A program made the position numbers. From Chlamydiia bacterium (GTDB lineage Bacteria > Chlamydiota > Chlamydiia > Chlamydiales > JAAKFQ01), in the NCBI GenBank assembly GCA_041688145.1, contig JBDNIV010000022.1:1-34807 (forward strand): DNA of 34,807 nucleotides, in the 5' to 3' direction. This document shows positions 21,001 to 24,000 of the stretch, piece by piece (position 1 is the first letter of the stretch; every line of letters starts with the position of its first letter).

Positions 21001-24000
21001 GGTCTTGCTGCAAATAGAACAGTTTTTTGCACAAACCCAAAAGTGAAATAAGCAATAATCCCAGAGAGAACTGGAGATACAATCCAGCTGCTAGCAATAA
21101 AAGCTACATGCCCCCAATCTATAAGGTGCCATTTTCCTGCAGCGATGCCGAAGCCCAAAATAGCGCCTACAATAGCGTGTGTAGTAGAGACTGGCCAGCC
21201 AAAGGCAGAGGCAACTTGCAGCCATATACCAGTGGCAAAAAGAGCGGCTAACATACCTAAGACAAAGAGGGTAGGGTCTGCAGGAAAAGCACTTGGAGCG
21301 ATGATGCCTTTTTGCAAGGTTTCCATTACATTGCCACCGAAGAAAAAAGCCCCACAAAATTCAAAAATAGCTGCTAATACAACAGCTTGCTTTAGACGAA
21401 GTGCTCCTGATCCTACAGAGGTGCCAACAGCATTCGCGACGTCATTAGCACCTATGTTCCAGGCCATGTAGAAACCGAAACAAAGAGCTAATATAATGAG
21501 AAGGGACGTTATTTCCATATTTCCATATTTAGCTTACGTCAAGAACCATCCGTATACGGTTAGAAAGGTGCTCTGAGAGTTTTGAGAGACGGGCAATTTC
21601 ATCAAAAAGATTTAGCCATAGGTGAAAAGTATAGTGTTCAAATTCTTCTGCTTTACCAAAAAGCTTTTTCATAAGCTTATATTTTATAGAAGCATGCTCA
21701 TGCTCTAAGAAAGCGACGTCTTCTACCATAGCCTTAACTTTTTCAGCTTCCATACCACCAAAAGCAGACTCAATAAGATTGTCGACTTCTAGGGTGATCA
21801 GATGCGCTTTTTCAAAGGTCTCAAAGCTTTTATCTACAAGTAGACAAAAGTCCTCTTTGAGCCAATCAGGCATACTTAATTCGCGCAAGGTCAGTGTAAT
21901 CCCAATGTGTTCACAGATATCGGCAATCGAGTCTTGAATGTGGAGAATTTCTAAAAGATCTTGGCGGTCTACAGGAAGAAATAGACTTTTAGGAAGGTGG
22001 TTTCTTAAGTCGTGTTTAGTAAGATCTGCTTCGTACTCAAGCTTCGAAATAGTGTCTGCTATTTCAGATACTTTAGAAAAATCTTCAGCTTGAAAAGCAT
22101 CAAAAAGAGCGCGCAACTCAAGTACACAACTCGTTACTTTCTCCATATGCGTTTGCAAAGGAGTAAAAGGGGACTTAGCGAAGAGCCTTGCTATAGTGCG
22201 CATGTATCGGACCTGTTTTGGCTGGATCCTATCGCATTCACTGTTTATCATCAACAAAGTATGAAACAAAATGCGGCCGTGTTAATAAGAGCCATAGAAT
22301 ATCAGCTAATTTATAGAATAAGAAAAATTCGTGAAATTTAGGGATATTCCATTTTACTAGGGCGTCTGGCAAGCGCTTCAAAATGCCATATTTTTTGACA
22401 AATGGAATGAGGTGAGGTAATTTTTTTAAATTTATTATTACCGAGTAAATTACATGAAAATTCGATTATTTCTTTTGTTTTGTTCTTCTTGTTTGTTTGC
22501 CATTGCACATGGCGAATATCCTTGTGTTATTAAATATGAGGATGCGCGCTTTGTGATCCCTTTTTACTTAGAGAGCTTTACTGAAGAAGATGATTTGTGG
22601 AAATTGCACATCAATATAGGTGGGTATAGAGAAACATATGTTTATGAGGGCCTTCAAGGCGTATTGAATAAAGAAAAAAAGTCTCTTGCTAGATCTATGA
22701 AACGCGCTATTAGAAAGAAAAGTATTTGTAAGTTAGTGCAACCTTGTCCAGATGGTAATGGTGTATCTGTGCTTAAATTTCCGAATAAAAAAAATGAATA
22801 CTCTAAGCAGATTTTTTTTGTAACCAATCCTGTGATGAAAATTCCTTTAGAAACGCCTATACGACATGTCCAGATATTTGGAGAGCGCTGCTCAGGAACT
22901 AGTTTTTTAGAAAAGCTCCTTACTAATAATCTAATTAATATCTCAATTGATTGGCTTCTTGGTTGGAAGCATTTTCCTGATAAGGACTTGCTTTGTGACA
23001 GGTATTTAGAAAAAGAGAAAGATTTTTTAATTATTGTAATTGTTAGGAATTTAGATGACTGGCTTCAGAGTATGCATAAAACACTTTTTCATGCTAATGA
23101 AATGCAGAGGAATTCATTTTCACAGTTTCTGCGTGCTTCCTGGAATACAGAGCTGCTCTTGGATCGAGCAGAGGATGGCTCTTATCAGGAAAATGTGTTA
23201 GCTTTAAGGGCATTTAAGATGAAAACTTTTTTCTCTTATAAAGAGCATTTCAGCAATTTCTATTTTATTAATTATGAGGTGCTTTTGAAATATCCTGAGG
23301 AAATTATTGCAGATATTGCGAGTCGGTTTAGTTTGCAAAATCGTTTTCAATTTCAGCCTATTCTTGCCTATAAGGGAACTAACAATAGAGCGTTTAAGCC
23401 AGCATCTTACCCGCCTATTTCTGAAACAGACAGGGCGCATATTTTAGAGAGTGGTAATATGGAAATAGAAAAAATGGTGGGATATTGAACTGGCAGGTAG
23501 CTTTTATCTGCTATTTTTTTGATTGAAGGGAATGTGATTGCTTAGTTAAATAGCGCGTTTTGTTCACGGTCTGATAGAGCCTTAAAACTGCCCTTAGTTA
23601 AATTGCCGAGTCTTAAGCCTCCAATACGGATACGCTTCAGCTCCATAACGCTTAAGCCGGCTCTTTTACATAAAAGGCGCACTTCGTGCTTCTTGCCTTC
23701 CATGACAGTTACTTTGAGAGTATTTCGGCGTACTTTAGTGACTTTTTTTGGCTTTACAAAAGTGCCTTCAACACGCGAGCCTTTAGCAATCTTTTCTAGG
23801 TGATCAGGAAATATAAACTCTTTAACTTTCACAAGGTATTCTTTCTCCATACGTGTGCTTGGGTGAATAGCCTTTTGGGCAAATTGTCCGTCATTGGTCA
23901 CGATTATTAGGCCTTCAGAGGCTTTGTCGAGTCTTCCTACTGTATAGAGCCTTTGAGGGATATGGGCAAAAAGATCGATCACAAGCTTTGTGCTAGAATC

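Follow-up and report, generated by a model that had tools for sequence, protein, structure and literature searches.

PAPS and ATP are not normally available in the periplasm, so bacterial enzymes that depend on them are expected to be cytoplasmic. Bacteria with NodH, KpsS or Stf0 make PAPS themselves, and AssT (ASST; PF05935) is a bacterial sulfotransferase with an export signal. ASST, however, is a PAPS-independent beta-propeller (see PMC13426309), whereas P0001, the protein described here, is predicted to have a PAPS-type alpha/beta fold. NodH, KpsS and Stf0 are described as PAPS-dependent enzymes that sulfate the bacterium's own glycolipid or polysaccharide (PMC11625862), and Stf0 matched the catalytic domain of P0001 with a Z of only 7.9.

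The Golgi-lumen sulfotransferases (heparan sulfate O- and N-sulfotransferases, TPST1/2) resemble the system that we propose in that a PAPS-using enzyme faces away from the cytoplasm across a membrane, accompanied by glycosyltransferases, and receives a donor made elsewhere. Their homology to P0001 is confined to a shared fold (9–14% identity) and they have a type II anchor, in contrast to the cleavable-type leader of P0001; moreover, the site proposed here is the bacterial periplasm or inclusion lumen, and the PAPS synthase of chlamydial relatives is itself export-tagged. [quoted passage not shown] In that source's account, however, the enzymes lack a signal peptide and are type III secreted, the donor is UDP-glucose and the product is a storage polymer. 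Giant-virus glycosylation clusters (for example, Moumouvirus australiensis Ma461/Ma457, a sulfotransferase plus Sat/APS kinase, as described in PMC10117803) likewise provide an intracellular parasite with glycan-sulfation genes of its own that work with host metabolites. The viral copies of the P0001 family differ in being leaderless (0 of 54 loci, by a heuristic) and in forming their own branch in a quick tree; Ma461 is likened to P0001 here by its description.

The window (the whole 34,807-nucleotide stretch analysed, from a Chlamydiia bacterium) contains an intact gene for P0001, with the motif GERCSGT at residues 143–149 (Table 1). The survey's finding was of two paralogs with this sulfotransferase domain, and both were recovered; the genome yielded no third copy of the family. 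Contigs from three runs (two studies; one run may be the source sample) covered the window gene wholly or partly and had no differences from it. Because both flanking genes are oppositely oriented, the sulfotransferase gene is its own transcription unit; no sigma-70 promoter-like site was found on the plus strand. The left neighbour belongs to a housekeeping block, glgP-PiT-DUF47. This block and the RluB-type gene also flank a family member in three relatives (G065, G066 and G074), but we rejected orthology by common gene position, as those copies have the opposite orientation and lie in another branch of the tree.

Table 1. Features of the sulfotransferase locus and its paralog
Feature	Position	Strand	Remarks
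ORF for putative export-tagged PAPS-type sulfotransferase P0001	22454..23488	+	intact, 344 aa
Sec-type signal-peptide-like leader, residues 1–20	22454..22513	+	two basic residues, hydrophobic core, A-x-G ahead of residue 21
Beta-rich domain of no known function, residues 21–132	22514..22849	+	P0001 models
Predicted sulfotransferase catalytic domain, residues 133–344	22850..23485	+	structural matches
Putative 5'-phosphosulfate-binding loop, residues 143–150	22880..22903	+	Arg145, Ser147, Gly148, Thr149
Lys172-His173	22967..22972	+	His173 candidate catalytic base
Putative 3'-phosphate-binding motif R198-x3-D202-x3-S206	23045..23071	+	
Intrinsic-terminator-like hairpin and T run, directly 3' of stop	23491..23520	+	consensus match only
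Left flank, PhoU-like DUF47 gene	21529..22269	-	
Right flank, RluB-type pseudouridine synthase	23542..24246	-	
Paralog of P0001	C11:20351-21349	-	332 aa, 31% identity to P0001 across full length, tblastn E 7e-42

Structure prediction supports a PAPS-type sulfotransferase fold for P0001 and its paralog. The AlphaFold model of P0001 was alpha/beta (pLDDT 90.6), and VIA-align of residues 133–344 returned sulfotransferase-family chains in all of its top 21 rows (Z 11.7–8.6), with kinases at Z ≤ 8.2; model and matches thus agree on a family assignment that the survey had left unfolded. Cytosolic SULTs and tyrosylprotein sulfotransferases tied for the top (SULT3A1 7v1o, Z 11.7, rmsd 3.5, 186 aligned; TPST1 5wri, Z 11.6, rmsd 3.0, 171 aligned), the latter class occupying ranks 2, 6 and 7, and carbohydrate sulfotransferases were not favoured. 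The best Foldseek match was SULT1C3 (E 8.3e-4). The Pfam scores of P0001 were all below cut-off (Sulfotransfer_1, 16.7 bits against 22; Sulfotransfer_3, 14.2 against 27; Sulfotransfer_4, 18.7 against 22.8), which reproduces the weak Sulfotransfer_1 and Sulfotransfer_4 matches reported earlier (E 0.0051 and 0.0017, respectively). A PDB sequence search gave nothing useful (one match, E 0.96), and the weak matches of a PDB profile search (best E 0.0054) were sulfotransferase-type by name or entry in 25 of 26 rows.

P0001 would thus share with the PAPS-dependent superfamily (PF00685/PF13469/PF17784; SULT3A1, TPST1, StaL 2ov8, CurM 4gbm) the fold of residues 133–344, the PSB arginine, RxxxDxxxS and a conserved histidine, and differ from it in its sub-threshold Pfam scores, an extra, possibly barrel-like N-terminal domain and a putative bacterial Sec-type leader. 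Following the PSB description in PMC11625862, residues 143–150 are the probable 5'PSB loop (R145 in 127/131 aligned rows, G148 in 131/131), the register of Arg145 against solved enzymes being taken from the motif rather than from superposition. His173, present in all 131 rows next to K172 (127/131), has a plausible position for a catalytic base. The RxxxDxxxS motif (R198 in 130/131, S206 in 126/131) agrees with the 3'-phosphate-binding consensus as quoted in PMC11625862; in the paralog the Asp is replaced by Asn. The family is a distinct, unnamed sulfotransferase subfamily (GERCSGT/KH), of which we found no characterised member.

The N-terminal domain is possibly an OB-like barrel: a fold search with residues 21–132 gave a best Z of 6.0 and many OB-type rows at Z 4–5.5, against a tool bar of 8 and with a single-sequence model of pLDDT 63. 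Cys24 and Cys92 were invariant in the five aligned two-domain relatives. A likeness to AB5-toxin B subunits was discarded (rows at Z 4.0–5.5, below the noise level). The ESM Atlas offered no family for the domain, no other carrier was found in this genome or among the fetched loci, a metagenome scan for two-domain relatives found none close, and the N-domains of the two paralogs gave no significant profile alignment (hhalign probability 0.5%).

The N-termini of both paralogs look export-type, in support of the signal peptides proposed by the survey; leaders were called by a home-made heuristic script plus inspection, and the cleavage site was picked by inspection. Residues 2–18 were helical in the predicted model of P0001. 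Of the 34 family ORFs from chlamydiae, 31 were called as having a signal-peptide-like start, as were 9/9 chlamydia-labelled loci versus 0/20 loci with a named non-chlamydial taxon; the background of the heuristic is up to 18% (191/1063 ORFs of this genome).

Genes for PAPS synthesis were absent from the assembly, as the survey had stated. Family searches for APS kinase, ATP sulfurylase and CysD/PAPS reductase retrieved only P-loop or unrelated fragments from this genome, chlamydial Sat-APSK, CysD, APSK and TauE queries had no match in it by HMM or tblastn, and a chlamydial CysN query had only G-domain matches to other GTPases. One APS_kinase row on C9 (204 aa, profile positions 2–28) exceeded the Pfam cut-off only when neighbours were summed, and we take it to be a small kinase of another kind. 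An inositol-monophosphatase-family gene, considered as an exported PAP phosphatase, had no leader and gave no sign of that role. ASST is likewise lacking, with no PF05935 match for P0001 or anywhere in the genome. Among the 33 family-bearing chlamydial genomes, a sulfurylase together with an over-cut-off APS kinase was found in only six, in a search that scored eight APS kinase candidates per genome. Where chlamydial PAPS-synthesis enzymes do occur, the script called leaders on most of them (Sat-APSK fusions, 22 of 32; APS kinases standing alone, 12 of 16), and in one such protein (L052) homology to Aquifex Sat/APSK begins at residue 22. One relative (G217) has TauE, CysD, CysN, MFS and a leader-bearing APS kinase in one row. 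Such an arrangement in some relatives, with cytoplasmic CysDN and an inner-membrane transporter beside an export-tagged APS kinase, points to a compartment that the bacterium itself can feed.

The family was present in 33 of 400 sampled chlamydial genomes. The survey's count, none in 22 relatives, understates this spread, and its picture of a rarity gives way to a family widespread in environmental chlamydiae; its 891 cluster representatives were recovered at E ≤ 0.001. Chlamydial copies fell on one side of a branch in the quick tree (SH-aLRT 90). Giant viruses and free-living bacteria commonly carry the subfamily as well. Leader-bearing neighbours of the chlamydial copies in relatives include GT11, GT25, GT92, GT34, GT2, GT4, NodZ-like proteins, pyruvyltransferases, LicD, Methyltransf_24 and other sulfotransferases, and Pfam confirmed one sulfotransferase-GT11 fusion. 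This genome gave no tblastn match to the GT11, GT25 and Methyltransf_24 partners; it encodes a GT17, a GT4-like protein, a cytidylyltransferase and a UPRTase with leaders, by the heuristic.

From the fold, motifs, leader sequences, gene absences and neighbourhoods we infer an extracytoplasmic, Golgi-like sulfation of glycans with host PAPS, for which we see about an even chance. Both proteins would be active PAPS-dependent sulfotransferases, moved from the cytoplasm by Sec, and would act in the periplasm, or else in the inclusion lumen once exported by type II secretion; Sec/T2S substrates are described as reaching that lumen (PMC6717882). The nucleotide transporters, two secretins and GspE encoded in this genome count in favour of this reading; the solitary position of both genes and the structural ranking, in which carbohydrate sulfotransferases are not preferred, count against it. 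Sulfation would be one step of an extracytoplasmic glycan-decorating system common to many environmental chlamydiae. Relatives capable of PAPS synthesis would mostly rely on an export-tagged enzyme located in that compartment, and this organism, which lacks a PAPS-making enzyme, would take PAPS from the host cell; the likeliest acceptor would be a sugar on a chlamydial glycoconjugate, at the surface or in the inclusion lumen. We put forward more tentatively, as slightly short of an even prospect, a broader version, in which the addition of Sec leaders allowed environmental chlamydiae to relocate sulfation in its entirety (PAPS synthase or APS kinase, sulfotransferases of several families and partner glycosyltransferases) to the outside of the cytoplasm, creating a bacterial, Golgi-like compartment powered by ATP and donors from the host. 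PAPS synthesis would then have been dropped in lineages like the present one, which would parasitise host PAPS to sulfate surface or host molecules.

Eukaryotes have plentiful PAPS at its sites of synthesis, which counts for the bolder form of the survey's reading, a host-directed effector. Sec and type II secretion would in that case bring the enzymes to the host cytosol or inclusion membrane, where they would transfer sulfate from host PAPS to glycans, lipids, protein tyrosines or small signal molecules of the host, with the putative N-terminal barrel picking the target. The genome has T2SS genes (two secretins plus GspE), and C. trachomatis is reported to have several Sec/T2S proteins that occur in the host cytosol (PMC6717882). 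Both sulfotransferase genes are solitary, outside any glycan island, and have the added domain, and the GC content of the window gene (0.344) is the lowest among 859 genome genes of at least 600 bp (mean 0.419, s.d. 0.019). Also in favour are the ranks of the tyrosylprotein sulfotransferases in the fold search and the leaderless relatives common in giant viruses (26 of the 54 viral loci are GVMAG contigs). We nevertheless consider an effector unlikely, and not the default: the relatives' copies sit among glycan-building enzymes, in neighbourhoods that look like a toolkit for this purpose and include the GT11 fusion, and cytoplasmic CysDN with an MFS protein beside an export-tagged APS kinase would be pointless for enzymes of the host cytosol.

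The donor might instead not be host-derived, either because the 8% of the genome missing from the assembly contains the PAPS genes or because both genes are non-working orphans left after PAPS synthesis was lost. The assembly is 92.29% complete in 51 contigs, and the only other genome of the same taxonomic family (G001, 95% complete) lacks both genes. A third sulfotransferase gene of this genome, an unrelated remnant on C32, has lost its N-terminal half; with one gene decayed, the system may be eroding. However, APS kinase is missing from 23 of the 33 family-bearing genomes, including near-complete ones (G080, one contig, 99%; G221, one contig, 94%; G241, two contigs, 97%), a recurrence that makes an assembly gap unlikely and tells against the survey's suggestion that the PAPS genes lie in the missing part. 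SulP and TauE were not found in the 92%-complete genome either. Neither ORF is disrupted and each retains its full set of motif residues; P0005, a relative that shares 88% identity with the paralog, is intact as well. We therefore regard this explanation as improbable.

Very improbable, in our view, is that the sulfotransferase fold serves other chemistry (another nucleotide donor, PAPS-driven dehydration or plain PAP/PAPS binding), in which case no PAPS supply for sulfation would be needed. Besides the sub-threshold Pfam scores, P0001 has only 9–21% identity to solved enzymes, NCBIfam had no match for P0001, P0002 or P0011, and retinol dehydratase, at rank 16 of the fold search, shows that the fold can serve otherwise. 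Against this stand the near-invariant R..S motif for 3'-phosphate binding, which nucleotide kinases lack, and two family members that pass the Sulfotransfer_1 cut-off (L109, 27.8 bits; L114, 30.5 bits); leaderless relatives also adjoin a Sat-like gene with an inositol-monophosphatase/CysQ-family gene (L134) or other sulfotransferases (L119, L142). Least probable is that the hydrophobic start is an uncleaved anchor that keeps the enzyme at the inner membrane, facing the cytoplasm, with PAPS imported by a nucleotide transporter: the genome has three clear NTT/TLC transporters with no assigned substrates, but the basic N-terminus, short hydrophobic core and small-residue cleavage pattern follow a Sec layout in nearly all chlamydial copies, and the two conserved cysteines suit an oxidising compartment.

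The literature matches listed, judged mostly by the starts of their abstracts, included none that dealt with sulfotransferases of chlamydiae or with an exported synthesis of PAPS, in line with the survey's view that an effector of this kind is unreported in chlamydiae. Sulfated glycans have long been discussed in chlamydial attachment (PMC2229832); that question concerns C. trachomatis, and none of the 29 genomes of f36, a small-genome family that by its size is probably Chlamydiaceae, yielded a member, so our finding does not settle it. Export leaders on a PAPS-type sulfotransferase, and on the PAPS synthase of relatives, would imply nucleotide-dependent chemistry in a space supplied by the host. 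If glycan sulfation with host PAPS is borne out, PAPS would join the metabolites that chlamydiae parasitise, and a small soluble enzyme, directly assayable, would offer a possible route to sulfated chlamydial surface glycans. The finding suggests that these intracellular bacteria may run sulfation outside their own cytoplasm on a donor supplied by the host.

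The weak Pfam matches of the window gene and the 891 cluster representatives matching its domain, both listed in the survey's finding, were reproduced. A structure model of its protein, P0001, was built on a 131-row alignment (mean pLDDT 90.6). Foldseek placed cytosolic sulfotransferases at the top (SULT1C3, E 8.3e-4), and in a VIA-align comparison with 48,161 chains the best 21 rows were all sulfotransferase-family (Z 11.7–8.6, residues 133–344), with P-loop kinases from Z 8.2 downward. Arg145, Ser147, Gly148, His173, Arg198 and Ser206 are conserved in 123–131 of the 131 aligned rows, and R198-x3-D202-x3-S206 matches the 3'-phosphate-binding consensus (PMC11625862, excerpt). 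By predicted fold and motif, P0001 is a PAPS-type sulfotransferase. Residues 21–132 are modelled as a separate beta-rich domain, for which family and fold searches gave no assignment.

The C11 paralog aligns with the window gene over its full length at 31% identity, and the assembly holds no third copy of this GERCSGT family. A terminator-like hairpin lies 3' of the window gene's stop codon. Its GC content (0.344) is the lowest among the 859 genes in this genome that are 600 bp or longer (mean 0.419, s.d. 0.019), which suggests fairly recent arrival; the paralog is less extreme (0.387). The DUF47–RluB interval is a possible insertion hot spot. In L105:8397-11758 (genome G065), L023 and L025, the same interval carries family members of a different branch plus a GT4, in opposite orientation.

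Features of the genome under study (C, its contigs; L, a fetched locus; leader, Sec-type signal-peptide-like N-terminus)
Feature	Location	Strand	Remark
Sulfotransferase ORF, 344 aa, intact	window 22454-23488	+	flanked by DUF47 and RluB-type genes, both on the opposite strand
Paralog, 332 aa	C11:20351-21349	-	
Remnant of a third sulfotransferase gene, other family (Sulfotransfer_1-like)	L096:5130-5684 = C32 about 22130-22680	-	N-terminal half missing or decayed
Leader-bearing GT17	C34:52259-53143		
Leader-bearing GT4-like pair	C34:47557-49400		
Leader-bearing cytidylyltransferase	C2:56257-56775		
Leader-bearing uracil phosphoribosyltransferase (UPRTase)	C9:90501-91190		
Leader-bearing HIT hydrolase	C36:15827-16321		
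Leader-bearing zeta-toxin-like kinase	C25:2923-3966		
Scattered cytoplasmic polysaccharide genes: Wzx-like flippase, two GT4s, GDP-mannose 4,6-dehydratase (gmd), epimerase/reductase	window 1154-2647, 7693-8790, 14307-17462		
Gene run presumed to resemble type III secretion apparatus components	window 8799-13211		

The family is found widely among environmental chlamydiae. Among 400 scored genomes of the phylum (G043 received no score), 37 matched its profile; after four weak genomes (E above 1e-9) were dropped, 33 genomes from eight families remained, this one included. A leader, called by the same heuristic script throughout, begins 31 of 34 chlamydial family ORFs (loci from 30 of the 33 genomes), compared with 0 of 54 viral loci and 8 of 81 metagenome ORFs. 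By taxon label (39 loci, 10 unclassified), it occurs in 9/9 chlamydial versus 0/20 named non-chlamydial loci. The script was positive for 191 of all 1,063 ORFs in this genome, so its false-call rate is at most 18%; related genomes are not independent, and these leader and genome counts are therefore descriptive only. In a quick tree of 71 rows, a branch with SH-aLRT 90 set apart the chlamydial and related leader-bearing copies, and a second branch (SH-aLRT 99) the viral ones. Together with the controls, this split indicates that the leader came with the chlamydial lifestyle. Leaderless members are common on giant-virus contigs (L246–L299; 26 of the 54 viral loci are GVMAG). Among these and the loci L237 and L224, one member has an NCLDV capsid gene nearby and another is fused to an epimerase adjoining a GDP-mannose dehydratase. 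Three leaderless members occur at L134, from a Saccharimonadales (CPR) genome; their neighbours, one Sat-like gene and one of the inositol-monophosphatase/CysQ family, make this an unusual arrangement in so reduced a genome. The member in L152, labelled Chlamydia trachomatis, sits in environmental-chlamydia gene context, probably in a mislabelled MAG.

That this genome encodes no PAPS synthesis, as previously claimed, was borne out by the searches of its assembly. Pfam and TIGRFAM searches with positive controls found nothing real for APS kinase, Sat-type sulfurylase, CysD, SulP or TauE; a profile from 27 chlamydial Sat–APS kinase ORFs found no such fusion; and tblastn with chlamydial CysD, CysN, APS kinase, TauE and linked MFS queries agreed. 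Aryl-sulfate sulfotransferase was likewise not found. Across the phylum, 55 of 400 genomes have an APS kinase (47 over cut-off). Among the 33 family-bearing genomes, eight have one over cut-off, two below and 23 none; Sat occurs in four, CysD-like genes in three and a full PAPS route in six. Lack of the donor pathway is thus the usual state of family-bearing chlamydiae.

Where kept, PAPS synthesis appears mostly export-tagged. We fetched 51 APS kinase loci (L045–L095) and excluded four ORFs cut at the 5' end. Complete Sat–APS kinase fusions carried a leader by script in 22 of 32 cases, with five more by inspection and five without; for lone APS kinases the script count was 12 of 16. Leader-bearing examples include L045, L047, L049, L051, L052, L055 and L056; L052 is homologous to the Aquifex enzyme from residue 22 onward, directly past the leader. 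G217 (L158:1541-6735) encodes leaderless TauE, CysD, CysN and an MFS transporter, then a leader-bearing APS kinase; G106 (L159) is similar, and G065, G074 and G129 (L156, L157, L161) have CysDN and MFS genes with a leader-bearing APS kinase elsewhere. On the simplest reading of these sequences, APS would be made inside, exported over the inner membrane, with the linked MFS as candidate exporter, and phosphorylated in the periplasm or inclusion lumen, not the host cytosol. Leader-bearing APS kinases of about 320–330 aa, above the usual domain length with the excess at the C-terminal end, occur in G153 (L083), G170 (L085), G176 (L087) and G320 (L063); no sulfurylase was seen in G153, G170 or G320, which might therefore use host APS.

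In relatives, the family gene often stands in runs of leader-bearing genes of many kinds: GT11, GT25, GT92, GT34, GT2, GT4, NodZ-like, pyruvyltransferase, LicD, methyltransferase and further sulfotransferases; G220 has it as a GT11 fusion. In other relatives it is solitary among housekeeping genes, as here, and the GT11, GT25 and Methyltransf_24 partners have no match in this genome. At the unclassified MAG locus L118, leader-bearing GT32, GT2 and GT47-like genes and two family sulfotransferases are densely clustered in an island. The six leader-bearing enzyme kinds in the table are normally cytoplasmic. Export tagging seems to reach nucleotide salvage in other chlamydiae, with leaders on a purine nucleoside phosphorylase, a phosphoribosyltransferase and a PhyH dioxygenase (L050:2133-3017, L049:894-1430, L109:4828-5793). 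This genome also encodes nucleotide transporters and a type II system. The window's polysaccharide genes are candidate sources of a surface glycan that would cross the periplasm and might serve as the acceptor.

In our best reading, held with about even confidence, Sec would carry the sulfotransferases out of the cytoplasm to work in the periplasm or inclusion lumen, using host PAPS and a chlamydial glycoconjugate acceptor. Cytosolic SULTs, tyrosylprotein sulfotransferases and StaL scored within 1 Z unit of each other, and the acceptor therefore cannot be read from the fold. A host-directed effector, as the survey's finding proposed, is unlikely. Hidden PAPS genes, or sulfotransferases left as orphaned relics, are more doubtful still. 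APS kinase, Sat and CysD-like genes are all missing from G080 (one contig, 99% complete), G221 (one contig, 94%) and G241 (two contigs, 97%), and this recurrence in relatives makes an assembly gap an unlikely cause, if still a possible one for this genome (92.29% complete, 51 contigs). Some other chemistry is very improbable, and a leader acting as a cytoplasm-facing anchor has the slimmest chance of all. The best reading, the effector alternative and the anchor alternative all have PAPS from the host as donor.

According to excerpts of PMC4829429, C. trachomatis uses UDP-glucose of the host, imported by SLC35D2, to build glycogen inside the inclusion lumen, with enzymes that, unlike the sulfotransferases here, lack signal peptides and use type III secretion. 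Sec/T2S proteins reach the inclusion lumen and at times the cytosol (PMC6717882, excerpt). Predicted, untested sulfotransferase and Sat/APS kinase genes are described within giant-virus glycosylation clusters (PMC10117803, excerpt), an unexplained ATP sulfurylase in Babela (PMC4378268) and signal peptides on 44% of Chromulinavorax proteins (PMC6561590); excerpts of the latter two papers do not mention sulfotransferases. Literature including few subscription journals yielded no report of chlamydial sulfotransferases or exported PAPS synthesis, although supplementary annotation tables of genome papers may list the genes. The observation of two sulfotransferases is real and part of a larger trait that looks unpublished, one of ordinary sulfotransferase chemistry in which place and donor supply would both be unexpected.
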